From positions 1 to 56,336 of the forward strand of contig DATCTT010000298.1 of the NCBI GenBank assembly GCA_036567845.1: DNA of 56,336 nt. Direction: 5' to 3'. This stretch comes from Candidatus Ozemobacteraceae bacterium (GTDB lineage: Bacteria > Muiribacteriota > Ozemobacteria > Ozemobacterales > Ozemobacteraceae). The translations under genes were made by a program, and so were the position numbers. Under the pieces are notes generated by a model that was not told where the DNA came from, did no database searches, and saw nothing but the letters and a program-made list of their open reading frames with translations. This document shows, one piece after another, positions 21,516 to 55,628 of the stretch (positions are counted from its first letter, which is position 1; every line of letters begins with the position of its first letter).

Positions 21516-21544
21516 TTGACACCCCCCCGCTCCCTCAATATAAT
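21516..21544 (+). promoter_or_regulatory. Perfect consensus sigma70 promoter TTGACA-17-TATAAT
   Basis: TTGACA 21516-21521, 17-nt spacer, TATAAT 21539-21544, upstream of the clostripain gene. Confidence 0.88.
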
Positions 21545-21601
21545 CGAAAAAAGGCTTTCGATCGCAGCTCACAATGGAGGCACAATGCCGTGTTGCCTGT
21601 C

Positions 21602-24355: not shown

Positions 24356-24493
24356 CTCGTTTGTACGTACCATCCACAAGCCACACGGGGAGACGATGAA
24401 CATTCACCTCTCATGCATGCAGGGCAGGATGCCGATGGTTTTCCTGACACAGAACGAGATCTGTTCCGGCAATTTTCACATTCGGGAGTCGGC

Positions 24494-24877: not shown

Positions 24878-24879
24878 TT

Positions 24880-27887: not shown

Positions 27888-27940
27888 ATGCGTTGAAATA
27901 TTATGTAAACTCGCCTTGTGCGAACTCATCCGAGGTAGTC

Positions 27941-30828: not shown

Positions 30829-30880
30829 GTCCTGATCCCTGAAGGGAGATACCTGTACGTTCGCAGCCATTTTCAGCGCC

Positions 30881-33462: not shown

Positions 33463-33522
33463 ATCATTCCCTCCTGCGGGCGAACTGAGGAAAACAGCGC
33501 TCACCGTGATGAACCGCAAGAT

Positions 33523-42500: not shown

Positions 42501-42516
42501 TGCGATTTTACGGTGA
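33523..42516 (+). CDS. Giant (~3000 aa) secreted surface protein: about 10 Big_5/SbsA-type Ig domains alternating with a second repeat, ending in a T9SS/FlgD-type CTD
   Basis: Repeated PASGA..V..D....FS.PL...SV and Y......RD..GN.....F.F.T motifs; signal-peptide-like KSKNR...PALA|K. Start codon uncertain (track start 33214 overlaps the opposite gene). Confidence 0.85.
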   Translation: MYHPPSWAFFLFGPLLPLILSEKSKNRTFSPTGIFSLLIVLLGIFSPYPALAKGPVPFTQPITTMYGASFSFSVPLESRRVYIDTACFNTTGKLATTTGIPPFTSAFPFWPESLTQASWGTSPKHTYTTTNLSIAYQAGQITLSDNSDMEVGDVIFASAESDSRLRVYAFGAEANINLSPKAGFPVIATSTPISKPFGMVTTTGGVQLFWGSGTPGKLSHSLIKGTSVLPTPTPVLASMNSNYGVSACRIGQPSDRLLGVAVVLGTAATASTAQLLVLNEADLSIAATKTLQTGNIKSSHVEITQNPRSGVITIGYISDNTASVSNFLYSAGTFVATTTPSIGGVWSESTLTGFGIEGYSNFETSFVGNDRDTPLLRDALLRSSSSMVSGTFGTPGIVSLFPYDRSGVLSACLVVRKSDYKNFELWTRPLNYPKLCTWDQSSSVLYLEGPPFPGTTVTVTASFPEPLIESSTASAVNALGGAQPFTAPTTRLIASAGAQFILAFTDPMMTASFPAWVGETAGKQIRMFGPGSTSVNIGYTTHTSRSVVCSLEETLAFDTLYYIQIASDVLNASGTQLWEPATFSIRTQLANSGILASEVLAIEAFRDAARTDLIPAGSDISATSTLYLRIRARDPAFNTIDFATATYIVDGTNLATLSFAQPSASTETFYTPATTTALAWGVPHTLRFQTASPTASVTFVVTFPTTLPLAPASGAAAVPVTSTITIQANEPLDPASVVATTARLLIGGVPVPATLSYDPATRVITITPAANLLSETLYTVEVGRIRDAAGNPQVATLSYTFTSADVTPPALLALSPASGSTGVTIDTRIALTFSEQLATPSVNPATVRLLRPDGTASYAVSLNGRVITIDPDDTPDGFLRTITTYTVALGAGVRDIAGNSFTSVPATFTATFQTQASSTPPLAVATFGLYRDAARTDPFTAAEAVSGTATVHLRLTGTDGATQTRDIADVVLRTTWGPAFTLPVLEIASDSTGIYHYSYILASIPVFDFAGTLPPSPVATISFIPVGNPAEEATLTVRFPVFVPAQTTVQTLSGSALASGASGVRLDSGVSLRFTLPLDPSTIDSGSIQLIASSGPIAATRTLSPDGQTLVITPSTRLTASSTYLVRAVYAATGLRGLDGNPLYRPFEFAFTTQPFQTPPLSVGNAALFSKSGYTPADRLVPEGDGPGSGTLYLEFQGIDGSNLTVDATLASLSTGGIATLTETGAATGIYRGSFSVSGLPDGYRLIAASTVSPAASATLVITYPKFVSVTPASGATDITIDNRIFITLTEPLDAASVTTNTVRLTRPDGQAMYTVGVTGSNIIIDPNDTPDGYLRTLTSYTVALGAGVRDLYGNPFISNLATWTSSFQTQLSSTPPSAVNTLTLYRDAARTDAYSAFESVFGKAPVFLKLTGTDGATQTRDIASVTLRTSWGPEFILPLLETASNSSGFYYYDYTLASIPVFDEVLTLPPAPVATISFLPPTGPAAGATLTVLFPAWLPAQTTVQTLVSAVPASGATGVRLDSGISLRFSSGLAATTVDEISLQLLGPSGAIPASRVTAPDGQTIQITPAAPLAAASTYRVKAASSLSGMRGVTGNPLYRGFEFAFTTQNAQTPPTAVSETLLFSLPGYDPFTRLATEADCPNTGTLYVEMRGTDGSPLTVDTVVASISTGVAATLTETGAATGIYRGSFAVAGLADGFRLIVAPSVSPAASATLVVTYPTLTVGLPASGATGISVQTTVAAQADEPLAPATIGTATVRLRTGTTLVPSSVSYASPERQVLLTPTAPLLYNTNYIIDISGLRDEAGNPLSAPLSWSFRTQDSTVPPTNLLTLDVFSDSGYSLLLASGSLVTPGSRLFIRITATDASPGTIDATGVRCSSNLNASPITISLVESAPASGMFLGSVPVFPEAGALLTIESLTAPALRRQFRTPTRPSITSLVPASGSSDLPFDTLFSIRTDKPVDGLTLTAATVRLSDLRGYLVASMALRSPTEILVEADLATDSGVSLEVTSGLADTDGMSFPATIASYATLTPSYGPLTVYADAGFTQVLPTESVVKPGDLLRVRLSATDTRTRSLESLAAAFSDGIATTGFPITEIAAGEYRGGFAVPAHPGATLTISLPIAPGLTERLHIQESFRVTLVDPADGAAAVPADVWPTWRFSRPLSAATTFDDTRFRLRKLPAGTLVSGNVYPSADQTVVEFLPDMFLDLSTAYQLEVDGGITDTTGAPLGTDFITGFVTQPPPPPPSTVRSIAHFRDAGFTTPWPGVIPGDALYLEVRADDISFSTVDSTRVRIDATDGSFVATAVMLLEETGPDTGIFRRVLPTTTAEGQTITVRSQADSNYRLDLPVFSRPKLAGISPASGSGNLWLDQPLRLTFTKPLEATLIASGGITVRTQAGTPIPLTIERSADGKTLTLSPSGQWATGTEHLVSLGLPLRDTDWVPIPETRFSFTTRSIAPPLLELFSGIASRAGTPVSAFHESLPGSIRATASATDLFGFRPETRHVRLQGATGTAGFDLTEIATAPGLFAGSGILPFARGSAATATLEFGARPSLGFVVAPLPRLLGLHPASGAASIAEAVVITASFSRPIDLSPAPTLALRVNGAASTGLLSTSGEFATEVQWIPDMALLPGARVEAVFPVLQDRLGQPLQVAPTVFSVVGIQGMILYTDPAFTRPLVGTLVSGPSVWIEVAASGPIIVPPASRLLQAYAQRNATMPYLLPLDQAEAASRRFRGRIDLEPARGISSVTIPVVPGERIDMFAPVLTGQTKYIYYRTTGNTPPVKIRRLSAFTDMHYRQPLEGGDLPQTTVYLEIEAEDLNWLHADSTDLSVTSDSDPAGFELTLRETAPHSGIFRAALSLNPRTGLSNGAGAVIAVRPGESIVLRSAADPGVVLRLRYQPLTRLDHLSVWPSPVRGDRVTFSFWLTTAASVDITIFDASGDEVWWLTHACRTGENRVTWNIPRRIANGAYLYRLELHPETDAPVKKRIFKGKFAILR
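35968..38703 (+). repeat. Tandem intragenic duplication, two diverged 1368-bp (456-aa) units
   Basis: Equivalent landmarks are exactly 1368 nt apart: PASG at 35968/37336/38704, LTETG at 37183/38551, V/LLE motif at 36472/37840. Confidence 0.9.
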
Positions 42517-42575: not shown

Positions 42576-42902
42576 ATGTTTCCCAAAGGTGGCGCCAATC
42601 TCCAGGGGCTGATGCGCCAGGCCCAGAAAATGCAGGAAAAGATGGCTGAGACGCAGGAAGAGCTGAAGAAGCGGACGGTCGAAGCCAGCGTCGGCGGCGG
42701 CATGGTGACGGTCGTCGTGACCGGGGCCCAGGAGCTGCAGAAAATCACCATCAACAAGGAAGCCGTGGACCCCGATGACGTCGAGACCCTCCAGGATCTC
42801 GTCCTGTCGGCCGTCAACACCGGCATCCGAAAGTCCCAGGAAATGGTCCAGGAAGAGATGGGAAAAGTGACCGGCGGTCTGAATATTCCCGGGATGTTCT
42901 GA
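42576..42902 (+). CDS. ybaB: Nucleoid-associated protein YbaB/EbfC
   Basis: LMRQAQKMQEKM, GGGMVTVVVTG, DPDDVETLQDLVLSAVN, TGGLNIPGMF. Confidence 0.95.
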   Translation: MFPKGGANLQGLMRQAQKMQEKMAETQEELKKRTVEASVGGGMVTVVVTGAQELQKITINKEAVDPDDVETLQDLVLSAVNTGIRKSQEMVQEEMGKVTGGLNIPGMF

Positions 42903-42946
42903 ACGCACGGCGGATACGCCCGGGCGCAGTCCCCCCGATTCCCCAT

Positions 42947-42981
42947 GAAGCGAGCCCTCCCTGGGCTCGTTTCGTTTTTTT
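42947..42981 (+). terminator. Intrinsic terminator after ybaB
   Basis: GAAGCGAGCCC-TCCCT-GGGCTCGTTTC stem followed by G and 7 T. Confidence 0.85.
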
Positions 42982-42985
42982 CACA

Positions 42986-43657
42986 TCAATAGTAAATTCT
43001 ATTCCAACTCCGGTAATGCAGGTTCTGATTGATCACGGCGCTGGAGAGGGTGGTCGTGATCTCGAGATCCGGTGTTCCCGGGCCTTTTTTGTCCGCATCG
43101 GCATCGACGACGAGCGTCACGAGAAGCATGGGGGTCTCGGGATTGAGGGGATGTCCATACAGTTCGAACTTCACGTTCCGGATGCCCGGAAACGCCAGCT
43201 CGCGGCCGGCCGTCGTCCGGATCAGGCATTTCCGGGCCTCGTCGATGTGGTAATTGACCTCCTCGAGCACCGGGCTCGTGGTGAGATCAGGCGTGTCGTA
43301 CACCTGCCGGTGGAAATGGAGCTCGGCCGGGGAAACCAGCACCGGCACCGTCACGTCGCCCTTCGTGTAGGCTTTCGCATCGACGATCGGCATCTCGAAT
43401 GCCTTTGCCTTCTGGGCCAGGGTCGCGGATTTCGGAATGAACGGCGTGGCACAGCGGAAATCCCGGCGGAGGTGGTTGATGGCAAACCGCGCCCCCTGGA
43501 GTTCCTGAAGGTCGACCGAGCCGCGCTTTCTCGCATTCGTGATATAGCTGAACACCTTGTAGGTGATCCCGAGCAGGGCAGCGACAAGAATCACACCGAT
43601 CGCCAGCTCGACGAGGGTGACCCCCCGTTTTTGTGTGCCATGGCATGATCCACGCAT
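42986..43657 (-). CDS. Prepilin-type N-terminal cleavage/methylation protein (PulJ/PilW-like)
   Basis: QKRG|VTLVELAIG..., then ARFAINHLRRDFRCA, typical of J/W pseudopilins. Confidence 0.82.
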   Translation of the reverse strand: MRGSCHGTQKRGVTLVELAIGVILVAALLGITYKVFSYITNARKRGSVDLQELQGARFAINHLRRDFRCATPFIPKSATLAQKAKAFEMPIVDAKAYTKGDVTVPVLVSPAELHFHRQVYDTPDLTTSPVLEEVNYHIDEARKCLIRTTAGRELAFPGIRNVKFELYGHPLNPETPMLLVTLVVDADADKKGPGTPDLEITTTLSSAVINQNLHYRSWNRIYY

Positions 43658-43658
43658 G

Positions 43659-44195
43659 TCAGTAATACTCCCGTTCGTCGAACAGGACGGTGGCCAGGGC
43701 GAGTTTACGCATCCGGTCGGGTGTCCCGCCGATCGCATCGATCTTGTCGGGCACGCGTCCCTCGTTCCAGAACACCTCCACGATGAGTTTCCGGAGGAAT
43801 CGCCCATTGGCGGCCTCCCCCTCGAGGGGCTCAAGGCGGAGCTTCCGATAAAAATATGCTTTTGTATATTGTTCTGGATATTTTTTCGTCACCGGTTTCC
43901 AGGCAGACTCCGGGTGGACAGGCAATGCGACGGACTGACGGGTCTGCGAATCCACGAGGGAACCTTCGAAAATCTGCAGTTTTGCATCGGTCAGCTCCCC
44001 GACCGGCATCGACTGGACGAGTTCGATCGTCTCCTGGGCGATCTGGAGGGCGCGCAGATAATTTTCGGCCCGGCTGGTTTCCGAACCGGTCGCCGAGGCA
44101 AAATGAATCAGCCCCGCGAAGAACACGAGGGCCACCCCCGTGGCGATGACGATCTCGACAAAGGTGAACCCCATCCGGTCACTGAAACGCCTCAT
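43659..44195 (-). CDS. Prepilin-type protein (PulI/PilV-like)
   Basis: RMG|FTFVEIVIA..., ALQIAQETIELVQ, LIVEVFW. Confidence 0.82.
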   Translation of the reverse strand: MRRFSDRMGFTFVEIVIATGVALVFFAGLIHFASATGSETSRAENYLRALQIAQETIELVQSMPVGELTDAKLQIFEGSLVDSQTRQSVALPVHPESAWKPVTKKYPEQYTKAYFYRKLRLEPLEGEAANGRFLRKLIVEVFWNEGRVPDKIDAIGGTPDRMRKLALATVLFDEREYY

Positions 44196-44647
44196 CTGGC
44201 CGCCCCCTCCCGCTCCAGCAGGCGCAACGAACTCTGGCGGGCTTTTTCCGCCTCATCTGATGCCTTCCGGATATCTTCGAGCAGGAGCAGGCCGTTCCGT
44301 GTGGTATCGACACTCTGGGGGGCGTAATACTCGGGCGGCAGCTTGTCAAGCTCGGTCATGAACGCCCGGTTGGAATCGAAGAACAGTTCGGAAAGGTCAT
44401 TGGTGCCTGGCCGGATTTGCTTTTCCGATGCCTTCCGCGCGGTGATGGCCGCCGTCAGGGTCTCCTCGTCGGTCGGCCCTGATGATTCCCCGGACACTTC
44501 CTCCTGGGGAAGCAGAACCGGCCGTTCCCCCGGCGACAGTTTCTTCCCGCTGCCAGCTCCGCGAAACACCAGAAACAAGGAGAGCAGAAGCAGGAGGGAA
44601 ACGAGTATTCCCAGCAGCGGGACAAAGCCCTGCGTTCGCCTATGCAT
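44192..44647 (-). CDS. Small prepilin-like protein lacking Glu5
   Basis: MHRRTQG|FVPLLGILVSLLLLL; translationally coupled to both neighbours. Confidence 0.6.
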   Translation of the reverse strand: MHRRTQGFVPLLGILVSLLLLLSLFLVFRGAGSGKKLSPGERPVLLPQEEVSGESSGPTDEETLTAAITARKASEKQIRPGTNDLSELFFDSNRAFMTELDKLPPEYYAPQSVDTTRNGLLLLEDIRKASDEAEKARQSSLRLLEREGAAR

Positions 44648-46814
44648 CGTAGTCGACCGCCATCAGGGATCGCGCTTCGCCGATGCTGACGCGCACGGGA
44701 TATGCAGGGAAATACAGATTCGGATCATGGACGATGGTCAGCTTTCCCCCGTCTGGCAGGGTCCGGAGATCGAAGAGATTGTCCACGAAGAGGTTGCCAT
44801 AGATGTTGACGCTCTTTCCCCCGCAATCGATGCCACTTTCCGCCGAAACCGACGATGACGAATTGTCCCTGAAATTGGTCGATGCAGCAAGCGATGCGTA
44901 GATACTCACGACACTGGCGGAGGATTTGACAACGATATTGCCGAACATCAGGTAGATGCCGAGGGTATCCGCATGGAGACTGATCGGCGACAGATTGCCG
45001 ACGATGCAGTTGCCTCGCTGGAGGATGATCCGGCCCTTGCCGCGGTATTTCTCGACCGACGAGAGGTCGAGGGGGGCCCCCGCCGGATCGAGGATCATCG
45101 AGACCCCATCGAGATCGAGCACCTTTTTGCCGCCGATCATCTTGATGCGCTCATTCACGAAATCCCCGACACTTTTGTAGAGATGCGCCACACTGCGCAG
45201 CGTGGGATCGAAGGCCGGGAACACGTCGTATCCCTCGACGCCGCCACTCACCGAGGTGGGGGTTTTGGGCTTTTTCACATTCGCTCCGAAGAACAGGTTG
45301 TTAACCGAAAGCGACTCGATGGGGGCGGACATGAGCACCTTCGTTCGCTCATCGATCTGGGGGGAGCAGGTCTTGCCGGCGAAGGTCTCGGGCTTCTCTT
45401 CGTAAAACAGCGGTACGGGCGGAAACGTCACGTCCATCGTTTCTCCGCCGAATAGTTCGAACTTCACCTTGGCCTGGTCGAGAAAGGCGATCTTGAAGAA
45501 CCGGAGGAACACCGGCCCCTCGACGTAGACGGGGATATCCCGCCCTTCCCCGAAGAGCACTGGCATTTTTCCTCCAACGAGACGCTGCGGATTTCTGGTT
45601 GAATACTCGACGAAATATTCACCGATGCCAGAAAACGGATGTTCTTTCACGAAGGAGGAGCCGGAATCACCGGCGATACTCGCGTAATCGGTGTATCCGT
45701 ATTGGTATTTCCAGTTTTGCATCAGGGAATAGACCATCGACCGGAACACCTCGGAGTTTCCGGGATTCCCTCCGGCTTTTTGATAATCTTTCGCGATCAT
45801 ATAGCCAAGGGTTCCTTCGGTCCCCGCATAGTTGGAGCTGGTTTTCAGGATCGACTTGTAGATGTTGACCAGCTCGGGAGTGTTGTGAAAGTCCGTCGAA
45901 ACCGAGTACGAATTCGCAATCGTCTTGAAATCGAAGGGCGGAATGACGAAAAAGAAGTTTCCCGCACTCACCTGCTCGAATCTGGGATCGACCGTCTGGA
46001 ACGGGGCCGGCCGGTAGAACGAGCCCAGCAGATGATGGTCATCCCTGAAAAACAGATCCAGGAGGACCGGCGGGGTTTTCGCGCTTTTCGCCCCCTGTGG
46101 GAATTCGGGGCAGGGAGGATACGACCGGTTCCCCAAATATACGTATGAGTATATTCCAGGATCGTCGGGGGCGATGCCCTTGACGATGATCTTCTTCTTC
46201 GGATGGCTCAGCTGGCGGCAGAAGCTTTTCACGAACAGGGCATACTTGTCGACGAAGGGATACGAGAGATCGACGATTCTGATCTCCCGCCGCTCCTTCA
46301 GCCGGATTTCCGGCACATCGCGGGACTTCGCCTTTCCGACGATCTCGAGATATCCGATGTAGGAAGGGCGCGGCGCGGCAATTTTGTCGATCACGGTGAT
46401 GCTGATGCGGCCCGAGATTTCGGCACTGGCCCCGAGATAATCGCGAACGAGGCCGTTCGCGACGGGGAGGCGGGCGGCGGGGATCTCGGCCTCGTAGATC
46501 ACCTTGTTGCCCCCGGCGGGATTCAGCTTCCAGAACTCGGCGATCTCGCGCCCGATCTGAGTGTTACGGTCGTTCACCCCGGCTTTGACCCCGGCGAGCA
46601 TCTCGTTGATTCCGGCCTGGACCAGGAAAACGATCCGTTCCTGTTCGATCGAGCGGCTGAGTTGGAGGATCTCCCCGCTTTTGTGGACATTGAGGCCGAT
46701 GAGCAGAACCATCATCATGAGGGCAAAGACACAAACGAAAAAGAGAACAAACCCCCGGCGGGCATGGGCGCCTGCCGGGAGTGTTTGTGTCTGGCTCTTC
46801 ACCGGGTGTCGCAT
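44640..46814 (-). CDS. Large PilX/PulK-like minor pseudopilin (724 aa)
   Basis: RRG|FVLFFVCVF (no Glu5), LVQAGINEMLA, IVGKAK; long C-terminal extension with beta-solenoid-like end (GRIIL..GN, GNIVV, IYGNLFVD). Confidence 0.75.
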   Translation of the reverse strand: MRHPVKSQTQTLPAGAHARRGFVLFFVCVFALMMMVLLIGLNVHKSGEILQLSRSIEQERIVFLVQAGINEMLAGVKAGVNDRNTQIGREIAEFWKLNPAGGNKVIYEAEIPAARLPVANGLVRDYLGASAEISGRISITVIDKIAAPRPSYIGYLEIVGKAKSRDVPEIRLKERREIRIVDLSYPFVDKYALFVKSFCRQLSHPKKKIIVKGIAPDDPGIYSYVYLGNRSYPPCPEFPQGAKSAKTPPVLLDLFFRDDHHLLGSFYRPAPFQTVDPRFEQVSAGNFFFVIPPFDFKTIANSYSVSTDFHNTPELVNIYKSILKTSSNYAGTEGTLGYMIAKDYQKAGGNPGNSEVFRSMVYSLMQNWKYQYGYTDYASIAGDSGSSFVKEHPFSGIGEYFVEYSTRNPQRLVGGKMPVLFGEGRDIPVYVEGPVFLRFFKIAFLDQAKVKFELFGGETMDVTFPPVPLFYEEKPETFAGKTCSPQIDERTKVLMSAPIESLSVNNLFFGANVKKPKTPTSVSGGVEGYDVFPAFDPTLRSVAHLYKSVGDFVNERIKMIGGKKVLDLDGVSMILDPAGAPLDLSSVEKYRGKGRIILQRGNCIVGNLSPISLHADTLGIYLMFGNIVVKSSASVVSIYASLAASTNFRDNSSSSVSAESGIDCGGKSVNIYGNLFVDNLFDLRTLPDGGKLTIVHDPNLYFPAYPVRVSIGEARSLMAVDYDA

Positions 46815-46849
46815 GGACTACGGCCCCGTGAGAGTTGCCGCGGTCCGTG

Positions 46850-48091
46850 TCACCAGCTGCCGCCACCACTCAGACCTGGCTGAGCATTCGCTTTCGGCTG
46901 GTCCTCTTCGTCCTCGATCGAAAGCGCATCTGTCACACCTGACTTCACGGGATCGAGAGCGACGCCGGCGGCATTGCCGTAGGCATCCGTCACATTGCCG
47001 ACGAGCGCGTCGTATTCCTGCTGCGACCTGCCAGATTTGAGAGCGAGATCGAGGGAGGGATCCGCGAGGTGGGCCTTTGTGATGCTCGTAGCGATCTGCC
47101 CCGTCCCCGCATCGAAAGCGGCACCGACCGTGGCCGAAACCGCCGAGTTGAACATTTCCCTGCCGGCAATCCGGCGGGCTTCCGCGCTGGTCAGGGCCAC
47201 ACCGGCCCGGTTCGTCTCGCGGATCGTACCGGCCGTTCCGCCGACGAGGGCGTCCGAGACGGCCGAGCCGACGGTGCCGAGTCCGACTTTGCTCGTCACG
47301 ATGCCGACGGTCGATTCGGCGGCCTGAAGGGTCGTTTCAAGCGCGGCAGCCTTGATGAAGCTCTTGTCGTCCGTGATCGCCTTTTCCGCGGCGGTGATGA
47401 GGGTGTTTCCGGTGGCTTTCACGACGCCCACCGCGACCGTGATGGCGATCGATATGCCCTTGAAGATCGGCACAGCCGGGGCTACGGCTGGGAAGATCAC
47501 GGCAATCGGAATCAGAATGGCCGTGATGAGACCAATGGCGGTGCCTGCAGCAGCGATCTTGTCACCAACGCTGACCAGGCTCTCGCCAGCTTCGCGCAGG
47601 GCCTTCTGGTAGATGCCCATGGCGCTCGCGTTCTGGTCGAGACTGTTGTAGACCTTGGTCGGATCGGTTTTCGCCGCCGCCTGGAGGGAGCCGCTCTTGA
47701 GCAGCTTCATCGTCGCCTCGGCGTCGGCCTTGAGCTTCTTGATATCCTCGTTGGCCCGGTCGATCTGGGCCTTGTATTTGTTGTATTCCTCTTCCTTCTG
47801 GCGCTTTTCGCGTTCTTCCTTGGACTCGCCCTTGAAAAAACCGGCGATATTGCTGCCCCAGGATTTCACCGTGTCGATGGCGTTGATGGTGAAATTCGCC
47901 ATGCCGCCGAGTTCCAGCGGTTTGATCGCCATGATGGCGTCATACGTTTTCTGATACTCGGCAACCGATTTCTCGATCTGAGCTTTCTGGTTCTGGGCAT
48001 CCTGAGCGTATGTCCAGGTCGGGGCAAAAATCTGAAGGATGAATGCCAGGATCGTCAAAACGGAGATCAGTTTTCGCGAAACCTTTTTCAT
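46850..48091 (-). CDS. Secreted coiled-coil protein with central hydrophobic hairpin and Gly/Ala-rich C-terminus
   Basis: Sec signal MKKVSRK...TYA; charged coiled coil; about 45-aa hydrophobic segment at residues ~179-224. Confidence 0.75.
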   Translation of the reverse strand: MKKVSRKLISVLTILAFILQIFAPTWTYAQDAQNQKAQIEKSVAEYQKTYDAIMAIKPLELGGMANFTINAIDTVKSWGSNIAGFFKGESKEEREKRQKEEEYNKYKAQIDRANEDIKKLKADAEATMKLLKSGSLQAAAKTDPTKVYNSLDQNASAMGIYQKALREAGESLVSVGDKIAAAGTAIGLITAILIPIAVIFPAVAPAVPIFKGISIAITVAVGVVKATGNTLITAAEKAITDDKSFIKAAALETTLQAAESTVGIVTSKVGLGTVGSAVSDALVGGTAGTIRETNRAGVALTSAEARRIAGREMFNSAVSATVGAAFDAGTGQIATSITKAHLADPSLDLALKSGRSQQEYDALVGNVTDAYGNAAGVALDPVKSGVTDALSIEDEEDQPKANAQPGLSGGGSW

Positions 48092-48215
48092 GGATACACC
48101 CCCCGATATTTTATTGCTCTCTCAAGTATATATCCATCTGCGGGGAATTTGTTACAGAGGTACCGCGAAATTCCGGCCCGCCTGTTGCTCTCCGGATAGT
48201 CCTGGGTCCAAAACA

Positions 48216-49628
48216 TCACTTGAACAGCTCTTTCATCCGCCTGATCTGTTCGAGCTCGACTTCGCCCATCTCGGAACTGGCACTCTTTCCGGTGCCGGGG
48301 GTCCCTTCCTGGACGGTCTGAGCCGTCTGGTTCGAAGTCCCGGCGCTGCCGGTGACCGGCTGTTCGCTGACACTCTCGGTTCCCGAGGAGTTCTGGGAGT
48401 TCATGAGACGCTCATAGTTGATGCGATCGATCAGGGTGATCTGGTCAAGCGCCTCCTTGCGGTAGGGATTTCCGTATTCCTTCAATGGCAGGAAGTTCAG
48501 CCGCGCTTCTTCCAGGCGCTCGGCGCGCATGAGCTGCGTCGCCAGTTCGAACCGCATCATTGAATCGTTCGGATTCTCGGCCACATAGGCTTCGAGCCTG
48601 GGTAGGACCTCCTGCCCGCGGCCGGTGGCCTGACAACAGGCCACAAATCGCTGGAGGAACCCCTGATTGCGCGTATCCGCGGCAGAAAGCTCGTCGAAAA
48701 GGGCGGTGGCCGATGCAAGACGGTTCGTCTGGTACAGACTCTCGGCCATGAGCAGCTTGAGATACATGTCCTGGGGCTCAGCCTCCCGCAGCGGCGTCAG
48801 CAGCGTGACCACCTCATCGAACCTGCCTTGGGAGTAGCGGATTCGGGCAAGGGGAAGCGGAGCAATCAGGGATTCCGAAGCCGTCCCCTTCCAGCCGTCA
48901 ACAATCTGCACAGCCTCTTCAGGCTTGTCCATCTGGATCAGCAGGTCGATCAACGCGCGCGGGGCATCGGGACTGTCGGGAAACTCGTCCATGATCGATC
49001 GGAAGACGCGTTTTGCCCCCTCAAAATCCATTTCATCCCAGTGCCGGTAGGCGATACTCATCAGGAACTTCCGGCGTGCCACCGGGTCGGGCTGCTGCCC
49101 CTGGCCGCGGCGCTGCATGATATATTCCGCCAGGGCCGGGAAGCTGCGTGGCTTCGGAAGGCGGCTCATCGATCCGAACACCCGGATGGCGAGATTGCGT
49201 TCCCCCCGGGAAAGCAGGAGCTCGCCCTTGACGAATGCCAGGAGCACTGACCCGGGATACTTTTCCCGAAGCAGATCAAGACGCTTTTCGGCACGGTCGT
49301 ACCGTTCGAGAATCCGGTCGATGAGAACGATGGCGAGATGCGCCTTGTCTGCTTTCGCTGGATCCGCAAGCTCAGCTTTGAAAAAGGCCATCGCGGCCGT
49401 CAGATCCTGGGTTCGGATCGCGGCGGAGAGAGGCAGGTTATCCGTCAGGACGAACCGATAGTATTGCTGGACACCCTTGAGAAAACTCCGCTCCGCGAGA
49501 GCCTGGAGAGCGGCAAAATACGTGTTTCCGGTTTTCGCTTGAACTGCTCCGCCGGCATCGAGTCTCGGAAGGAGAACGCCTGCAGCGACAAAAGCAAGCA
49601 GCACAATATATATCTTATGCTTTATCAC
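48216..49628 (-). CDS. Exported TPR-repeat protein
   Basis: N-terminal hydrophobic signal, repeated TPR-like helices (IRYSQGRFDEVV, AESLYQTNRL, FELATQL), low-complexity tail. Confidence 0.75.
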   Translation of the reverse strand: MIKHKIYIVLLAFVAAGVLLPRLDAGGAVQAKTGNTYFAALQALAERSFLKGVQQYYRFVLTDNLPLSAAIRTQDLTAAMAFFKAELADPAKADKAHLAIVLIDRILERYDRAEKRLDLLREKYPGSVLLAFVKGELLLSRGERNLAIRVFGSMSRLPKPRSFPALAEYIMQRRGQGQQPDPVARRKFLMSIAYRHWDEMDFEGAKRVFRSIMDEFPDSPDAPRALIDLLIQMDKPEEAVQIVDGWKGTASESLIAPLPLARIRYSQGRFDEVVTLLTPLREAEPQDMYLKLLMAESLYQTNRLASATALFDELSAADTRNQGFLQRFVACCQATGRGQEVLPRLEAYVAENPNDSMMRFELATQLMRAERLEEARLNFLPLKEYGNPYRKEALDQITLIDRINYERLMNSQNSSGTESVSEQPVTGSAGTSNQTAQTVQEGTPGTGKSASSEMGEVELEQIRRMKELFK

Positions 49629-50491
49629 TCGGGCTGTCCTCCTTCCACTTCATGCTGCTGGAGCACATCATCCGGGTTGGTCGTCGCCGGAGGCACCGGC
49701 GGCTGCTGGTCGGATTCTGGGGGGGTAGCGCCCCCCTGCTGCCCGGTTCCCGTCGGTGCAACGCCCGGAGTCAGCGGATCGTCCGCCTCGTCCCCTGGTT
49801 CGTTATCCAGAGCAAGCGGGGGGGTATATTCGTGAATCTGGGAGAAGCCCAGATATTCCCCCCAGGCGGCCAGCCTGGCGATGGGCGGATCGGTGACGAG
49901 CCTGCCTTTCTCGATAATCGCACGCCGGCCCGCAGTGAGCGTATCGCCGCTTCCCTGAAGACGTGCCGAGCCTCCCTGCATCGTGACAACGAGGTTTCCG
50001 TCTCTGGGCAGGACGAAATCGGCGGCGGAATCGTGATCGAGGAGAAGCGAAGTCGAGGCGGCTTGGAGGCGGATCGGGAAGAGACTCTTGCCGTGCTGGA
50101 TCGCGACGCCCCCGCGTTCCAGTTCGAGATGGAGGGTGTAGATGCGAATAGCCGAGCCTGGATTCACCCGCAGCAGCGACCGTTCTCCGAGACGGATACG
50201 CGCTGTCTCGTCACGGCCTGTGACGACGAGTGAACCGCTCGGGATCAGCAACTCCGAACGAAGGTTCTTTGCCGCAACACGCGGACTGCCGCCGGGCGGT
50301 TCCAGCATACCGCCGCCGGGCAGCAGCGTCGCCATGCCCGCGACATACATGTCGCCAAAGCGGTATTTCACGGGGTTATCGGCCGCCAGAGCTAACGTAA
50401 CAGACCATACCACCAGAACGACGGCCAGCAGAATGCCCAGCTGGGCATCGCGATCAAGTTTCATCTTGGCAGGACAGGTGTTCATGTGCAT
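49625..50491 (-). CDS. FecR-domain-like exported protein
   Basis: Signal/TM helix, VTGRDETARIRL..SLLRVNPGSAIRI..LELERG..V.MQGGSARL; Pro/Gln-rich tail. Start may be 50464. Confidence 0.7.
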   Translation of the reverse strand: MHMNTCPAKMKLDRDAQLGILLAVVLVVWSVTLALAADNPVKYRFGDMYVAGMATLLPGGGMLEPPGGSPRVAAKNLRSELLIPSGSLVVTGRDETARIRLGERSLLRVNPGSAIRIYTLHLELERGGVAIQHGKSLFPIRLQAASTSLLLDHDSAADFVLPRDGNLVVTMQGGSARLQGSGDTLTAGRRAIIEKGRLVTDPPIARLAAWGEYLGFSQIHEYTPPLALDNEPGDEADDPLTPGVAPTGTGQQGGATPPESDQQPPVPPATTNPDDVLQQHEVEGGQPE

Positions 50492-50576
50492 CCATCCCCT
50501 CTCGCCAGAAAGTTCATCGGGGTATCCCTCTCACGGTATTACCAGCCCGGAGGAGAGAGGTTACACCCCACCGGAA

Positions 50577-51053
50577 TCATTTGATCTTGTCGATGAAGGC
50601 ACTGCCGGTCGGATCGTTCTGCCGATACCCCTTGACAAGGCTGGAACTGCGCCGGATGCGCCTGAGTTCGGCATCAATCCCGGCATGGGTTTCCGCGATA
50701 CGCTTCTGGAACAAGCGATCTGTTTCGACAAGAGCTTCGAGCGCCCCGCGAAACCGTGCAACGGCCTCGAGGGCCGGGAGGGCTTCCCCCTGCAGAACCG
50801 CCAATACATCCGCAAAACCGGCGACGGGATGGTCGGGGCGGCTGGAGGAAAGAGCCTTAACGAGCTCCTGCTCAACATCCTTGACCTCCAGGAGGGCGAG
50901 GTCGCGGTGATCGAGAAGCTGGGCGATCTCTTCCAGGGGCGGGTCAGGAATGTCGAGCAGAGCCCGAGCATGTTCGGTCAATTCGCCGTACAGCAGGCAC
51001 AACCGCTGCAGCCCCAGCAGAAGCCGGTCGCGCAGGGCGGTATCGATCCCCAT
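50577..51053 (-). CDS. FlgN/FliT-like helical chaperone
   Basis: All-helical, 158 aa, with C-terminal GY......SAFIDKIK typical of FlgN/FliT-like proteins. Confidence 0.55.
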   Translation of the reverse strand: MGIDTALRDRLLLGLQRLCLLYGELTEHARALLDIPDPPLEEIAQLLDHRDLALLEVKDVEQELVKALSSSRPDHPVAGFADVLAVLQGEALPALEAVARFRGALEALVETDRLFQKRIAETHAGIDAELRRIRRSSSLVKGYRQNDPTGSAFIDKIK

Positions 51054-51080
51054 GGGCAGCCTCCTTCCGGACGGTCACGA

Positions 51081-52748
51081 TTATTTCGCCGGTTTTGCCG
51101 TCACGAGATTCGTCAGACGTTCCTTGAGCTTCTCGAACAGGTTGTTCGAAAACAGAATCGTTTCCTTGTGCTGGGCGGACACAGCTTGGCCACGCCGATC
51201 GCAGCCAGTGAAGGTTTCGATGATCGAGACGCCGGTCCGTCCGAGTTTGTGAATGGCGATGAGAAATTCGAACGGCCAGAAGAACCCGCGGAATCCATCG
51301 GGAGGCCGGGGCATCGCGGGATCGCCGACCATGACAAAGATGGGAAAATCCTTTTCGTCGAAGGCGTTGAAAAACCAGGTCGACTGATCCCAGCCAAGAT
51401 AGCAATCCTTCTGGTTGAAGGAGTAGACGCGCTTCACCCGTTCGGTGAAGTTGATCGAGCCGACGACAATGTCGGAGCCGTCTGTGTGGGCAAGCTTCTG
51501 TTCGATCGTGTTGATCGTGAAGGGGATGCCCCGCTTCTCGAATGCCACTGTTTCGAGTTTGAGAATGGCGTTGAACCGATCGATGACAAGCGGCTGGCTT
51601 TTGAACCCAAGGGCCATTGCAAGCTGGTTCTGCAACCTTTCATACTCGATCCGGAGCTGCTCGCAGACGGCCTTGAGCTGCTCGACCCGCTCCGGATCGG
51701 TGCGAATCTTGATCGTGGCCTGTCGGAGCTGGTTTTTCGCCTCGACATACTCACTGCGGGATTTCTTGAGCAGCACCTGCTCCTCGGCAATCGTTCGTTT
51801 CTTGAAACCGCGGGCGCCGGAGACGCCCAGACCGGCTTCCCGGATCTCGCTGATGATGCCCGAGAGACCGAGCCCCTCGCGTCCTTGCCGGACGACTTCG
51901 AGCAGCTTCTCGAGTTCCCCCTGGACCATCGCAGCGGTCGGATACCGCGCCGCTGGATCCCGGGAAAGGAGCTTGAGGACGATCTGCTCGAGTTTCTGGG
52001 GAATCTCGGGAACGAGCTGTCGAGGCGGTGGGAAGTTCCAGCGCGTCTGGGAGAGAAAGACCTCCATCTCCTTCTTGCCCTCGAAGGGCAGGCGCCCCGT
52101 CAGTTTCTCGTACATCACGATCCCGAAGGAGAACAGGTCGGATACCTGGTCGACCGGCTTGTTCATCAACTGTTCGGGGCTTGCATAGACAACCGTATAC
52201 AATTTTTCCCCCGGCTGGTCGAGATCGCCGTCCTCGCGGACGTGTTTGGCGATGCCGAAGTCGATCAAGCGTGGCGAGTATTCCGGCCCGGTGAGAATGA
52301 TATTCTGCGGTTTGATGTCCCGGTGAACAAGCCCCTGTTTGTGGACATAGCCGAGGGCATCGAAACACTTAATGAATAGCAGGAGATATTCTTCAATCGT
52401 GGGAAGCGTCTGCTTGATGCCGAGGGTCGTCGCGGAATGGCTGCGGGGAAAGGCGTCGAGCGACAGGCCTTTGACATACTCCATCGCGAGGTAATGGAAG
52501 TCGTTGTCATACCCCGCGTCGACGAATTTGACGATGTTCGGATGCTGGAGGGATCTGAGGATCTGCCCTTCAAGCTTGAACCGCTCGAGAATGGCGGGAA
52601 CCTCGGAGCATTCCGGGGAAAGCAGCTTGATGGCGACAAGCTGCTCGGATTTGAGCTCGTACCCGATATAGACAAAGCCCATCCCCCCACACCCGATCAT
52701 GTCGAGGAGTTTGTAGCGTTTCAGTTCGGGTGCCGAGATCATGGCCAT
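51081..52748 (-). CDS. Soluble Hanks-type Ser/Thr kinase with coiled coil and unknown C-terminal domain
   Basis: IGCGGMGFVY, VAIKLL, HRDIKPQN, DFG, YASPEQ, DLFSFG; no TM or PASTA. Confidence 0.93.
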   Translation of the reverse strand: MAMISAPELKRYKLLDMIGCGGMGFVYIGYELKSEQLVAIKLLSPECSEVPAILERFKLEGQILRSLQHPNIVKFVDAGYDNDFHYLAMEYVKGLSLDAFPRSHSATTLGIKQTLPTIEEYLLLFIKCFDALGYVHKQGLVHRDIKPQNIILTGPEYSPRLIDFGIAKHVREDGDLDQPGEKLYTVVYASPEQLMNKPVDQVSDLFSFGIVMYEKLTGRLPFEGKKEMEVFLSQTRWNFPPPRQLVPEIPQKLEQIVLKLLSRDPAARYPTAAMVQGELEKLLEVVRQGREGLGLSGIISEIREAGLGVSGARGFKKRTIAEEQVLLKKSRSEYVEAKNQLRQATIKIRTDPERVEQLKAVCEQLRIEYERLQNQLAMALGFKSQPLVIDRFNAILKLETVAFEKRGIPFTINTIEQKLAHTDGSDIVVGSINFTERVKRVYSFNQKDCYLGWDQSTWFFNAFDEKDFPIFVMVGDPAMPRPPDGFRGFFWPFEFLIAIHKLGRTGVSIIETFTGCDRRGQAVSAQHKETILFSNNLFEKLKERLTNLVTAKPAK

Positions 52749-52782
52749 GGGGGATGAGCTCCGTCAGTGGGGTGTGGCGTCG

Positions 52783-53331
52783 TTACTTCTTGGTGGCGAT
52801 GAAATCGATGCGCTCCTGGGCGTTTTTCGCGATCTTCGAGCCGGGCTTGAGGCGGATGACTTCGGACCATTCTTTCTGGGCCTCGGCCTGCATGCCCTTC
52901 TTGAAATAACTGTTGGCCAGGTAGTAGTGCTGGTTTTCGTTGTTGGGTTTGATCGCCAGGGCGCGCTTGTAGGTGTCGATCGCCTTGTCGGTTTCATTGT
53001 TGCTGTAATACATGAATGCCAGCCAGTCGAGCAGGTCGACATTGTTGGGGTCGGAGACGAGCAGCTTCTCGACCTCGGCAATTCCCTCGCCGGTGCCAGC
53101 CGTGTATTTGGTCAGCAGCTCCTCTTCCTCTTTTTTCATCTGATTCTGGAGATCGTTTCCGGACAACACCTGCTTGAACCGCTTCGAGGTGACACTCGCC
53201 TTCTCTTCTTCCGACTGGTCGGCGGCAGTCGACTCGGCCGGTGCTCCCTTGTCCTTTGAGACGAGGAGTACGACAACGATGGCGACGAGCACCACCACAC
53301 CCACGATGATCATCAACGTTACGGCATCCAT
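52783..53331 (-). CDS. Membrane-anchored TPR protein
   Basis: N-terminal TM helix, TPRs LDWLAFMYY..AIDTYKRAL.IKP, HYYLANSY..A..EW..VI.L.P. Confidence 0.85.
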   Translation of the reverse strand: MDAVTLMIIVGVVVLVAIVVVLLVSKDKGAPAESTAADQSEEEKASVTSKRFKQVLSGNDLQNQMKKEEEELLTKYTAGTGEGIAEVEKLLVSDPNNVDLLDWLAFMYYSNNETDKAIDTYKRALAIKPNNENQHYYLANSYFKKGMQAEAQKEWSEVIRLKPGSKIAKNAQERIDFIATKK

Positions 53332-53398
53332 ACCCTAATCCCTCCTGCTATGAGGATGTTTTCAACAATTCTTTGGCCCGTCAGGCCATTCCAAACCG

Positions 53399-54226
53399 TC
53401 ACCCGATCCCCCATTCCGCTAGAAATGCCTTGAACCTATTCCAGGAATACCGCCCGGGGCAGGTGACGGGCACTTCGTCAACCAGCACGGCAACGGCCGT
53501 GGCATTGTCGGGGGCGCCGCCGGCGTAGGCATGCCTGACCAGCCGCTTCGCCAGCCCGGTGAACGGCTTCCTGGCCAGCTCGTCCCGGATGGTCTCTTCG
53601 GGAATCGGCCCGTAGATCCCGTCGGAACAGAACAGCAGCACATCCCCCGCGACAAGATCGACAAGCGAGGTGTCGATGTTCACGAACTCGCGCACTCCGA
53701 GAGCGCGGCTCAGGATGTGCCGCGCGGGGTGGTTCCTCGCCGCGGCTGCGTCGAGAAGCCCGGCCCGCACCTGTTCGGCGACGAGCGTGTGATCGTTCGT
53801 CAGCTGGCGCACCCGGCCGTCGCGAAGCAGATACGCCCGGGAATCGCCCACATGGCCGAGAACCAGCTGGCTGCCCGAAATGACCCCTGCCGTCATCGTC
53901 GTTCCCATGCCCTGGCACTCAGGATGTGCCTTCACGTGCTGCCAGATGGCATGGTTCGCCTCGGAAAACGCAGCTTCGAGAGCCGCCAGCCCGGCCCCTT
54001 CGGGACGGGGCCCTCCAAGCCAGCAACGCAGCGAGTTCGTCGCGATCCGCGAGGCGACTTCCCCCGCGGCATGCCCGCCCATTCCATCGGCAACTCCGAA
54101 CAGACAGGCCCCGGCCGTCAACGCCGGCTCGCGCCAGGGCGGGACCGCCAGGGGATTGTCTTCATTGTTGCGTCGGACGAGTCCGCGGTCGGACAGACAG
54201 GAAATCTGCACTTGCGTGCCTTTCAA
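53399..54226 (-). CDS. PP2C-family Ser/Thr phosphatase (Stp1/PrpC-like)
   Basis: DRGLVRRNNED, VADGMGGH, GMGTT, HVGDSRAY, SRALG, CSDG, DNATAV; TTG start. Confidence 0.93.
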   Translation of the reverse strand: MKGTQVQISCLSDRGLVRRNNEDNPLAVPPWREPALTAGACLFGVADGMGGHAAGEVASRIATNSLRCWLGGPRPEGAGLAALEAAFSEANHAIWQHVKAHPECQGMGTTMTAGVISGSQLVLGHVGDSRAYLLRDGRVRQLTNDHTLVAEQVRAGLLDAAAARNHPARHILSRALGVREFVNIDTSLVDLVAGDVLLFCSDGIYGPIPEETIRDELARKPFTGLAKRLVRHAYAGGAPDNATAVAVLVDEVPVTCPGRYSWNRFKAFLAEWGIG

Positions 54227-54248
54227 TCAGCGTCTCTACTTCGGCGGC

Positions 54249-54278
54249 ATTATACCCATCCTGTTCCGGATGGGTCAA
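54249..54278 (-). promoter_or_regulatory. Sigma70 promoter TTGACC-18-TATAAT for the PP2C gene, spacer occupied by an inverted repeat
   Basis: Reverse complement of 54273-54278 and 54249-54254. Confidence 0.7.
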
Positions 54279-54317
54279 GCACGGATACGGGGCCAGGGAA
54301 CGGTCGCACGAGAGTCG

Positions 54318-55103
54318 TCACGGCAGGAAGTTTTTGACGATCAGCGCGACACCACACAACGAAACGACGCCGCCGGCCACGAGCAGCCAGAAGACGCGGG
54401 ATTCGGCATCGGCAACCAGTTCCTCTTCGGACTTGGTCGAGATGACGAACGTCACATCGCTCTTCAGACGCCGGGCGATCGTGGGCGCCTCGCCTCCCGA
54501 GTGCAGTTCCCCGAGCACATAGCCGGGCTGGTTGACGGGGAAAAGGCGCTCCTTGTGCTCGATGCCGAGGATGCGGTGATTCGCGTCAAGGGCGGGAAGG
54601 GCGCTGACGTATCCCATGCTCAGGCTGCCGGTCGCCATGACCTGACCGATCGACGAGGCCGGGGCCGGTTCGAACCGGTCGATCACCTGGATACCGTCGA
54701 TCTCCGCCTCTTCGGGCCGCACCATCACGCGGCCGGTCGAATCCTGGATCCAGAACGGGACCATCGAGGTTTCGGAACGGACCACACGGTGTTCCGTCTT
54801 CGTCTTGCGCTCCTGCTGCTTCGTCTGCTGGTTCGTTTCGAAATAGGTGACCTCGATCCGCTCGCGGCTTTCACACGAGAACCAGACGCAGGGCTTGCCC
54901 GACAGAGGCGCCATCAGCGGGGAATCACACTGGATGGTCCCCTTGACCTCAACAGGTTTACCGGCCGAGACGGCTCCATCCTTCAGCTCCTGGGCCGTGG
55001 ACGTTCTCGTCCCTTTGATCTGGGCCACTTTTGCCTGTTCCAGATGCCGCCAGTATAGGAGCGCCAAACCAATCACGAGCACAAAAATGCCAACAGCCAG
55101 CAT
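54318..55103 (-). CDS. GIDE-domain (MUL1/SP1-like) two-TM protein, no RING
   Basis: TM - VEVKGTIQCDSPLMAPLSGKPCVWF..PFWIQDSTGRVMVRP..E..FPV....YVLG..FVIS.KSEEEL - TM. Confidence 0.75.
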   Translation of the reverse strand: MLAVGIFVLVIGLALLYWRHLEQAKVAQIKGTRTSTAQELKDGAVSAGKPVEVKGTIQCDSPLMAPLSGKPCVWFSCESRERIEVTYFETNQQTKQQERKTKTEHRVVRSETSMVPFWIQDSTGRVMVRPEEAEIDGIQVIDRFEPAPASSIGQVMATGSLSMGYVSALPALDANHRILGIEHKERLFPVNQPGYVLGELHSGGEAPTIARRLKSDVTFVISTKSEEELVADAESRVFWLLVAGGVVSLCGVALIVKNFLP

Positions 55104-55268: not shown

Positions 55269-55628
55269 ATGGGCATCCGGGAACGTCTGACCCGCGTCGT
55301 GAAAGCGTACGTCAACGCCTGGCTCGGCCGGCCCCTCACGGATTTCGAGTCCGACGACCTGCCCTGGCCCGACGAGGAGGAGCCCGCCCCCAGCCAGGCT
55401 GATTCCCGGGAGCGGGAGCTCGATGACAGGCTCAGGCGCTTCTACAGCCGGCTCGAGATCCCGGCCGGCTCGGACCTGGCGACGGTCCGGAAAGCCTGGA
55501 AAGAGATGATGAAGCGGTATCACCCCGACCGCCACGGGAATGATCCAGAGAAACTGGCCACGGCGACCAGACTCTGCCAGGAACTGACCGAAGCATATCT
55601 TGAGTTATCCCGGTTTCTCAAAACTTGA
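55269..55628 (+). CDS. Small J-domain (DnaJ-like) co-chaperone
   Basis: LEIPAGSDLATVRKAWKEMMKRYHPDRH..ELTEAY with intact HPD. Confidence 0.9.
   Translation: MGIRERLTRVVKAYVNAWLGRPLTDFESDDLPWPDEEEPAPSQADSRERELDDRLRRFYSRLEIPAGSDLATVRKAWKEMMKRYHPDRHGNDPEKLATATRLCQELTEAYLELSRFLKT

Follow-up and report, generated by a model that had tools for sequence, protein, structure and literature searches.

A 12-gene run in an Ozemobacteraceae genome as the probable juxtaposition of three units, among them a candidate minor-pilin cassette

Introduction

A run of 12 co-oriented genes that brings together Ser/Thr phosphorylation, exported proteins, and prepilins poses the question of whether all of them act as one system. 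The run (g01 to g12) fills positions 42986-55103, on the minus strand, of a 56,336-nt stretch of contig DATCTT010000298.1 (assembly GCA_036567845.1) from a Candidatus Ozemobacteraceae bacterium, which we analysed at its full length and call the window. A preliminary description, made from the sequence letters, had taken the run for a single filament/effector system in which a kinase/phosphatase pair would control a set of pilus tip and cargo proteins. We think it probable that the run is a juxtaposition, in one Ozemobacteraceae lineage, of three independently inherited units: a signalling module (module A, g01 to g05), a pair of exported proteins (module B, g06 and g07), and a cassette with prepilins (module C, g08 to g12), which would be a priming or tip set for a type IV filament. 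This degree of confidence applies to the explanation taken whole, i.e., to the three modules together with the filament role of the cassette.

Results

Gene order in related loci separates three modules

The window is a chromosomal fragment of ~62% GC whose sequence was also recovered on a Logan contig from SRR2059973, and the genomes nearest to it are metagenome-assembled genomes (MAGs) of Candidatus Ozemobacteraceae/Riflebacteria. Coding-type G+C content at third codon positions and an independent gene call on the same contig, which returned the identical 12 genes, bear out the run as first described (Table 1). The genes are closely spaced. The gaps from g01 through g06 measure, in order, 91, 67, 34, 27, and 85 nt, g08 and g09 are 35 nt apart, and a 1-nt spacer lies between g11 and g12. 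Stop and start codons overlap, as reported, at g06/g07 (4 nt), g09/g10 (8 nt), and g10/g11 (4 nt). The widest gap in the run, 124 nt, separates g07 from g08. Most of the first labels (GIDE, PP2C, transmembrane [TM]-TPR, soluble Ser/Thr kinase, TPR) agree with domain matches and TM prediction; those that fell are the FlgN/FliT-like label of g05 and the count of four prepilins, both discussed below.

We compared all 12 proteins, with the neighbouring YbaB and DnaJ-domain proteins, by tblastn against ~35 related loci, drawn from a scan with the C-terminal domain of the kinase (28 riflebacterial loci) and another with g09 (5 loci). The PP2C, TM-TPR, kinase, and g05 genes are missing from no locus that extends far enough to include them. 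In the distant riflebacterial loci, where the kinase is 58-75% identical to that of the window, g05 is followed directly by a convergent ybaB, with no room for g06 to g12, in all informative cases (19/19), and pilin genes accompany module A in none (0/19). On this gene order, the ancestral position of module A appears to be the one convergent with ybaB. The kinase module and the cassette also lie on separate contigs or scaffolds in five MAGs: SABV01, JAAYVD01, CALEDQ01, QOQW01 (Ca. Ozemobacter sibiricus), and JAACJG01 (Ca. Rifleibacterium amylolyticum).

Closer to the window, the arrangement changes between relatives. Genes g06 and g07 are limited to six close relatives with kinases at least 85% identical, and only two of these, the window and L006, have the cassette co-oriented with them. 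Three have it inverted (CAYMEN, L011; JAGOCE, L009 plus L124; JAKJFL, L010 plus L121), in such a way that g07 and g12 are tail to tail and g08 adjoins ybaB, and it is absent from CAZQYQ (L008), where g07 faces ybaB. We found no inverted repeats flanking the cassette that could have caused the inversion. Elsewhere (L002-L005, L125, L126), the cassette occupies other positions: after cheR in Ca. Ozemobacter sibiricus (L125), between lgt and a DUF2252 gene in L005, and, in the two Rifleibacterium-type genomes of L004 and L126 (Ca. Rifleibacterium amylolyticum), between flgI and flgH. In these two genomes (7294-17400 in L004, 4137-19520 in L126), the opposite-strand cassette splits flgI from flgH-flgA-flgG-flgF within a flagellar basal-body cluster.

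The modules are therefore independent of one another, and it is because of this synteny across the related loci that we read the run as a juxtaposition and not as a system. The comparison of gene neighbourhoods, which had been proposed as a check, came out against one system, separation of the signalling and pilin halves in other genomes being what the preliminary description had itself named as refuting; in the window and L006 the halves are co-oriented. The combination of genes had been recognised from no named system because it is not conserved. It could still be argued that all 12 genes make one phosphorylation-gated filament/effector system, in which the kinase and PP2C control tip assembly or cargo loading, given the co-orientation and short gaps in the window and L006 and the extracytoplasmic function (ECF) sigma factor and FecR that precede a paralogous cassette in L035. 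This has to be set against the 19 distant loci in which the kinase module stands without the cassette, the five MAGs in which the two are on different contigs, the three close relatives in which the cassette is convergent with g07, and the one from which it is missing. Moreover, family searches found no FHA domain or other familiar phospho-target among the 12 proteins, and g08 has a conserved promoter-like element of its own. The phosphorylation-controlled link is thus unsupported, as no kinase-cassette linkage is conserved and no FHA domain is present, and the same two findings set module A apart from kinase/phosphatase-gated secretion or pilus systems (T6SS of the PpkA/PppA/Fha type, Tad regulators). 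As far as gene order can tell, the idea of a single system is largely refuted, and we find it hardly credible.

A self-contained cassette found in several copies

The element upstream of g08 in the window has its two boxes at 48156-48151 and 48133-48128. Aligned upstream regions of g08 orthologs in six loci, among them inverted (L011) and relocated (L003, L004, L005) copies, share TG(T/C/A)AAC-N17-TA(A/T)(A/G)AT some 35-60 nt before the start codon. The element is promoter-like and may function as such, and module C appears to be a self-contained, movable cassette that carries it along.

Riflebacterial genomes hold several paralogous cassettes. Paralogous and remote cassettes share one layout (a large K-type protein, a small one, one of ~180 aa, and one of ~220 aa), while the first or last gene varies, and the order g09(K)-g10-g11-g12(J) is found in all orthologous and paralogous cassettes. 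The cassettes of L037, L038, and L039 follow the same plan. Two cassettes lie in locus L035 (4615-16776). Ahead of one are genes for an ECF sigma factor, two FecR proteins, and an EEP-family (Exo_endo_phos) protein; the other (695, 148 [N_methyl], and 182 aa) is inverted and comes after two genes with OmpA domains. Input from FecR/ECF may be a recurrent feature of cassettes. On L038 (621-13280), an unassigned metagenomic contig, two remote cassettes stand in tandem, with genes of 696, 747, 156, and 264 (N_methyl) aa and then of 964, 775, 141, 192, and 211 (TPR) aa, followed by a HAMP-SpoIIE phosphatase.

Prepilin features of the cassette proteins

In class III prepilins, a short basic leader with Gly (or Ala) as its last residue precedes a hydrophobic alpha1-N helix whose position +5 is Glu. 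Such a leader is present in g11 and g12 and missing in g10, and g11 and g12 are the only genes of the window with the canonical Glu+5 prepilin motif. The Glu+5 is invariant in the alignments of both, over all orthologs and paralogs examined. For g12, whose true start is the ATG at 43657 and not the TTG at 43834, the motif across orthologs reads (K/R)(G/A)↓F-T-L-V-E (the arrow marks the end of the leader). Against the N_methyl family (PF07963), g12 scores 16.0 bits for a cutoff of 21.2, g11 has no match, and the g11 ortholog of L125 scores 19.8 bits; many g12 orthologs have a precomputed PF07963 match, and their sources name several of them PulJ or GspJ. The T2SSJ family (PF11612) is on record for two g12 orthologs, P0232 and P0249, faintly so for P0249, and not for g12 itself; OZSIB_0686 is among these two and is marked faint. 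The g12 family comprises at least 178 clusters, whose named members are riflebacterial except one labelled Erysipelotrichia. With hhalign, g12 aligned to GspJ of E. coli with a probability of 86% over the N-terminal 61 residues only, and profile searches of the PDB with g11 and g12 matched only pilin N-terminal helices. The conserved motif and the family matches of its orthologs are in line with the first description of g12 as PulJ-like.

A prepilin-like leader that lacks Glu+5 is the hallmark of GspK/PilX-type subunits, and g09 has this leader, with Gly at -1 and no Glu+5. Almost all of the 37 aligned members of its family have (K/R)(R/K)G↓F and a hydrophobic stretch without Glu+5, the exceptions being a few with Ala or another small change and three that are N-terminally truncated. 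The AlphaFold2 (AF2) model of g09 is of good quality (predicted local distance difference test [pLDDT] 85, predicted TM-score [pTM] 0.79) and consists of a helix of 59 residues (21-79) and a long-stranded sheet (104-182), which together look pilin-like, a mixed middle, and a beta-rich C-terminal part that ends in a strand of 16 residues (707-722). No Pfam or NCBIfam family matched g09, and a profile search of the PDB gave nothing specific. The sole link by sequence or fold to GspK/PilX is a remote relative, P0165, which IMG names PilX and which scores below threshold against PilX_N (E=1.4e-4, 22.2 bits, cutoff 25.5). An exhaustive profile search gave 134 relatives of g09, with ~40 full-length representative clusters scoring strongly, and the weaker relatives (600-950 aa) match only its N-terminal (~10-200) and C-terminal (~530-712) parts. 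The conserved ends and variable middle parallel GspK and CpaL/TadG, whose pilin-like N-terminal sheet is completed by a terminal strand, a contact that licenses the assembly of K-I-J (PMC13533445). Of the earlier label PilX/K-like, the conserved RRG↓F leader without Glu+5 stands, but no match to GspK/PilX in fold or sequence accompanies it.

The small and poorly conserved protein g10 had been counted as a further prepilin. The G↓F of the window is not kept in its orthologs, which have no Glu+5 and just an N-terminal TM anchor, and which are 31-38% identical outside the window's own species group. The four prepilins initially counted hence come down to two canonical ones with Glu+5 (g11, g12), since g09 is K-type and lacks Glu+5 and g10 has no motif.

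The protein g08, probably exported by the Sec route, had been described as a secreted hairpin protein, and its signal-peptide-like N-terminus and the two adjacent hydrophobic segments at 185-224, flanked by long helices, agree with this. All 15 aligned members, down to ~40% identity, keep its extreme C-terminus, P..A...P.(L/F)...W, with P399, A401, P405, and W413 invariant and L407 nearly so. The last ~15 residues could be a docking peptide. The g08 family counts 19 clusters, none with Pfam matches on record, and its few named members are from Riflebacteria/Ozemobacteraceae. The AF2 model is all-helical but unreliable (pLDDT 44), and a profile search of the PDB found no sequence relatives, so the further label of pore-former-like amounts to an impression from hydropathy. 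PilC/PilY1 adhesins have a C-terminal beta-propeller and a conserved ~10-residue terminal peptide that adds a strand to the K-type pilin. The g08 model supports no beta-propeller; the C-terminus is, as said, well conserved.

Comparison with known filament systems

The closest parallels are the minor pseudopilins GspH-I-J-K of type II secretion systems (T2SS), such as GspIJK of E. coli and XcpVWX of P. aeruginosa. As there, a large subunit without Glu+5 is encoded with smaller Glu+5 prepilins in a tight operon, J-type family matches are on record (for two g12 orthologs, one of them faint), and the large subunit has a conserved C-terminal strand. The cassette differs in lying outside any gsp operon, in adding two conserved genes (g08 and g10), in its gene order, K-x-I-J instead of I-J-K, and in the size of g09, which has 724 aa compared with ~330 aa for GspK and shows no sequence or Foldseek likeness to it past the N-terminal helix.

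Multiple paralogous sets of type IVa pilus (T4aP) minor pilins and PilY1 are known from Myxococcus xanthus (PMC7541494, PMC8833165). With these clusters the cassettes share the presence of several paralogous copies per genome away from the core machine, the pairing of minor pilins, in each copy, with a single large protein that is variable or not a pilin, and a proposed role in priming and tip formation. Unlike in them, no PilY1 beta-propeller is apparent, g08 being predicted to be all-helical with a membrane hairpin, and the cassettes have two canonical prepilins and a K-type giant in place of four minor pilins. The third comparison is with CpaL/TadG of Tad and MshQ of the MSHA pilus, large proteins in the tip complex that contribute a terminal beta-strand (PMC13533445). 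Like g09, they are large (600-1200 aa) and begin with a pilin-like domain, and their middle can vary or be dispensed with while the extreme C-terminus is conserved; g09 relatives likewise keep the two ends only. In contrast to them, g09 has no TadE/TadG Pfam signatures and has a leader of the type IV pilus (T4P)/T2SS type. Overall, the cassette resembles a K-I-J minor-pilin set: it has the prepilin leaders and departs from GspK/PilX in fold, sequence, and gene order.

A proposed priming or tip set for a machine encoded elsewhere

No ATPase, platform protein, or secretin was found in the window or directly beside any copy of the cassette, therefore the filament machine would be encoded elsewhere. 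The genome-side search covered flanks of up to 10 kb on MAG contigs and ~637 kb of riflebacterial loci. Over these loci, tblastn with GspD/E/F/G/L/O of E. coli retrieved two secretins only, which are GspD-type, with N0 domains, and lie 5-6 kb from cassettes in L002 and L004, two cassette-bearing MAGs. Two PilT-like ATPases are encoded ~8 kb from the remote cassette of L039, from a lineage nearest Wallbacteria. A genome scan with the L039 PilT matched other phyla only and is uninformative on Riflebacteria, and tblastn of the riflebacterial loci with it found nothing. A literature search on Riflebacteria, Ozemobacter, and Rifleibacterium returned no description of pili or secretion systems.

Most probably, the cassette is a minor-pilin priming or tip set for a type IV filament machine (T4P or T2SS-like) encoded elsewhere. 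We propose that a prepilin peptidase would cleave the prepilins and that a K-I-J-like complex, a trimer of g09, g11, and g12, would form in the inner membrane to initiate and then cap the filament built by an ATPase/platform/secretin machine encoded elsewhere. The protein g08 may be a tip-associated partner or a membrane assembly factor, and any membrane activity it has is conjecture. The several paralogous cassettes probably provide alternative tips. This retains from the preliminary description a minor-pseudopilin cassette that depends on a T4P/T2SS machine elsewhere, with K-type, I-size, and J-type pilins and a conserved non-pilin partner, but it leaves out control by phosphorylation and the single 12-gene system.

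Several observations weigh against this explanation. The order K-x-I-J departs from the I-J-K order that is almost invariably conserved in known systems (PMC13533445). Alignments by hhalign are weak between g11 and GspI of E. coli (probability 17%, confined to the N-terminal helix) and weaker between g09 and GspK of E. coli (3%), and a Foldseek search of the PDB with the g09 model gave no match with E<1, hence none to GspK/PilX structures. The low pLDDT of the g08 model counts here too, as does the fact that the ATPase, platform, peptidase, and major pilin were not located in the ~637 kb of riflebacterial loci. With regard to the independence of the modules, their co-orientation and short gaps in the window and L006 make read-through co-transcription possible in this lineage, and the ECF/FecR genes of L035 render an envelope-signalling input to cassettes plausible in general.

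Which kind of filament the cassette would serve is a matter of weighing. A T2SS-like pseudopilus, in which GspK-I-J form the tip of a piston that selects exoproteins, would account for the g12 orthologs that have T2SSJ on record or are named PulJ, for the lack of Glu+5 in g09 as in GspK, with a long conserved end strand that could act in cis (PMC13533445), and for the GspD N0 domains of the secretins found. An extended adhesive or motility pilus fits better with the multiple cassettes per genome, each with a large variable protein, which resemble T4P minor-pilin/PilY1 sets, with the PilX-like remote relative of g09, and with the PilT-type ATPases near a remote cassette; furthermore, no T2SS L/M/C genes were seen. 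We hold the T2SS-like alternative to be a real but clearly lesser possibility.

It is much less probable, in our view very unlikely, that the cassette encodes envelope proteins with prepilin leaders that have nothing to do with a filament, with g08 as a pore former or a toxin that inserts into membranes. In g09, g11, and g12, the globular parts indeed lack detectable likeness to known pilins, and g08 has a hydrophobic helical hairpin between long helices. Nevertheless, one K-type and two Glu+5 prepilins in a conserved, fixed order are a hallmark of initiation complexes, the Glu+5 is invariant in both alignments, and we found no toxin or immunity signature. Finally, the cassette, at present known from Riflebacteria and a single neighbouring lineage, may represent an undescribed class of tip modules, in which a K-type protein of ~720 aa whose fold is absent from the PDB and the hairpin protein g08 would make up a membrane-active or otherwise novel tip, with paralogous copies as interchangeable tips, possibly subject to read-through control by the FecR/TPR and kinase modules in the window's lineage. 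We regard this as speculative and, on balance, improbable. For us, the cassette of g08 to g12 is the one part of the 12-gene run that is mildly new.

The kinase module and the FecR/TPR pair

Module A (g02 to g05, plus g01 in Ozemobacteraceae) appears from its distribution to be a resident, phylum-wide signalling operon, to which we assign no output. The GIDE domain of g01 scores 98.9 bits for a cutoff of 23.6 and is flanked by TM segments. By tblastn, g01 was found only in the Ozemobacteraceae loci L008 (a C-terminal fragment at the contig start), L009, L011, L013, L015, and L034, which suggests an addition upstream of module A at the level of this family. The phosphatase g02 scores 215 bits against NF033484 (cutoff 230), and g03 is 59-97% identical across the phylum. 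No TM segment is predicted in the kinase g04, and its C-terminal domain (~265 aa, window 51081-51878) has a mean column identity of 74% over 11 genomes, yielded no Pfam match, and gave nothing specific in a profile search of the PDB. For g05, whose predicted start and the stop of the kinase gene share 4 nt in several loci (e.g., L027 at 10783/10786), the alignment of orthologs shows an invariant C-terminal motif, GY.Q...GS(C/A)FI(D/N)K(I/V)K. Neither Pfam nor NCBIfam matched g05, and the PDB profile search returned only generic helical-bundle noise for it, leaving its former label of FlgN/FliT-like without support. Together, the C-terminal domain of g04 and g05, the obligate partner, make up a kinase-partner pair that is uncharacterised.

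The adjacency of a Hanks kinase and a PP2C phosphatase is shared with the Stk1/PknB-Stp1 and PpkA-PppA pairs, and g02 scores near the Stp1/IreP model. Module A differs from both in a kinase without TM segment, PASTA, or FHA partner, in the conserved C-terminal domain unique to this kinase and its obligate partner of 158 aa, and in the lack of conserved linkage to any secretion or pilus genes. An internal promoter had been pointed out at 54249-54278. This site has the best sigma-70 match of the region, but such sites are no more frequent there (5) than in shuffled sequence (3.6 +/- 1.6), so the site, a possible promoter for g02 onward, is not significant by itself.

Module B appears to be a lineage-restricted pair of exported proteins. 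The FecR-like label of g06 is weak in the window, but its L009 ortholog exceeds the Pfam threshold (PF04773, 27.0 bits, cutoff 24). Family searches of the window showed no sigma factor gene next to g06. A genome scan with the single g07 sequence had no matches, and its repetition with an alignment retrieved only the six close relatives.

Features and neighbourhood of the run

Rfam and tRNA scans of the window had no matches. Searches of PHROGs and PADLOC gave only coiled-coil noise or generic kinase/PP2C matches, and a reading as a defence system was therefore dropped.

Table 1. Positions in the window of the genes of the run and of neighbouring features.
Feature	Positions	Strand	Basis
g01, GIDE-domain protein, TM at both ends	54318..55103	-	PF12483 E=2.6e-28; TM 1-19, 237-255
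Sigma-70-like site, g01-g02 gap	54249..54278	-	11/12 consensus match, best in region
g02, PP2C Ser/Thr phosphatase, Stp1/IreP type	53399..54226	-	PF13672, PF00481; syntenic in 25 loci
g03, N-terminally anchored TPR protein	52783..53331	-	TPR families; TM 6-24
g04, soluble Hanks-type Ser/Thr kinase	51081..52748	-	PF00069 E=6e-45; kinase part residues 1-290
g05, 158-aa helical protein	50577..51053	-	no family; always after kinase gene
g06, exported FecR-domain protein	49625..50491	-	FecR E=0.031, 15.2 bits in window
g07, exported TPR protein	48216..49628	-	TPR_19 E=2.1e-21; start overlaps g06 stop by 4 nt
Cassette promoter-like element TGTAAC-N17-ATATAT	48128..48156	-	ends 36 nt upstream of g08 start codon
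g08, 413-aa exported helical protein, first cassette gene	46850..48091	-	signal-peptide-like N-terminus; hydrophobic helical hairpin 185-224
g09, 724-aa GspK/PilX-type pseudopilin	44640..46814	-	RRG↓F leader, TM helix, no Glu+5
g10, 151-aa bitopic membrane protein	44192..44647	-	N-terminal TM segment only; no family
g11, 178-aa canonical prepilin RMG↓FTFVE, I- or H-type size	43659..44195	-	motif conserved in 8 loci
g12, 223-aa canonical prepilin KRG↓VTLVE, PulJ/GspJ type	42986..43657	-	motif conserved in 8 loci
GC-rich hairpin resembling a terminator, between convergent ybaB and g12	42945..42975		13-bp stem, then T-run on + strand
ybaB	42576..42902	+	PF02575 E=3.1e-35

Elsewhere in the window are a dcw cluster (24413-31954, with an ftsL/DivIC-like gene, mraW, penicillin-binding protein, murE, murF, and mraY), zinc ABC transport genes, an oxidoreductase, and sensor kinases. 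A giant surface protein with Ig-like domains (Big_5, ~3000 aa) is encoded at 33214-42516 (+), 59 nt upstream of ybaB; its listed GTG start at 33214 overlaps a minus-strand ORF (32047-33531), so that translation probably begins downstream of it. In L027 (2531 aa) and L008 (1430 aa), from two further Riflebacteria, ybaB is likewise preceded by a giant ORF. On the other side of the run, a small DnaJ-domain gene (55269-55628, +) is divergent from the GIDE gene, a pairing retained in L009 and L011. The window further encodes a protein of 826 aa whose PilS-like 6TM and GAF matches are weak and below threshold (10046-12526, +), a SpoIIE-type phosphatase (543-1772, -), a GAF-PAS histidine kinase (3119-5179, -), and a clostripain-family (C11) peptidase (21497-24307). 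Among the related loci, the kinase modules or pilin cassettes of L002, L023 (SABV01), and L017 (DYKG01) are of riflebacterial type, with 60-66% identity, and the labels 'Erysipelotrichia bacterium' and 'Candidatus Methylomirabilis sp.' on their contigs are probably wrong, or the bins are mixed.

Discussion

The comparison of gene order removes a false lead, as the association of a phospho-switch with a pilus tip and a pore former would be a gene-order accident of one lineage. In its place stand a well-defined, uncharacterised signalling unit, composed of a kinase, a PP2C phosphatase, a TPR protein, and a 158-aa partner, which is found phylum-wide beside ybaB, and a set of cassettes that may offer a divergent test case for the recent model in which a terminal beta-strand within the K-I-J tip licenses assembly of type IV filaments (PMC13533445). 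In Riflebacteria, this candidate minor-pilin cassette exists in multiple copies, and the families of its largest subunit and of the partner protein have no characterised relatives.

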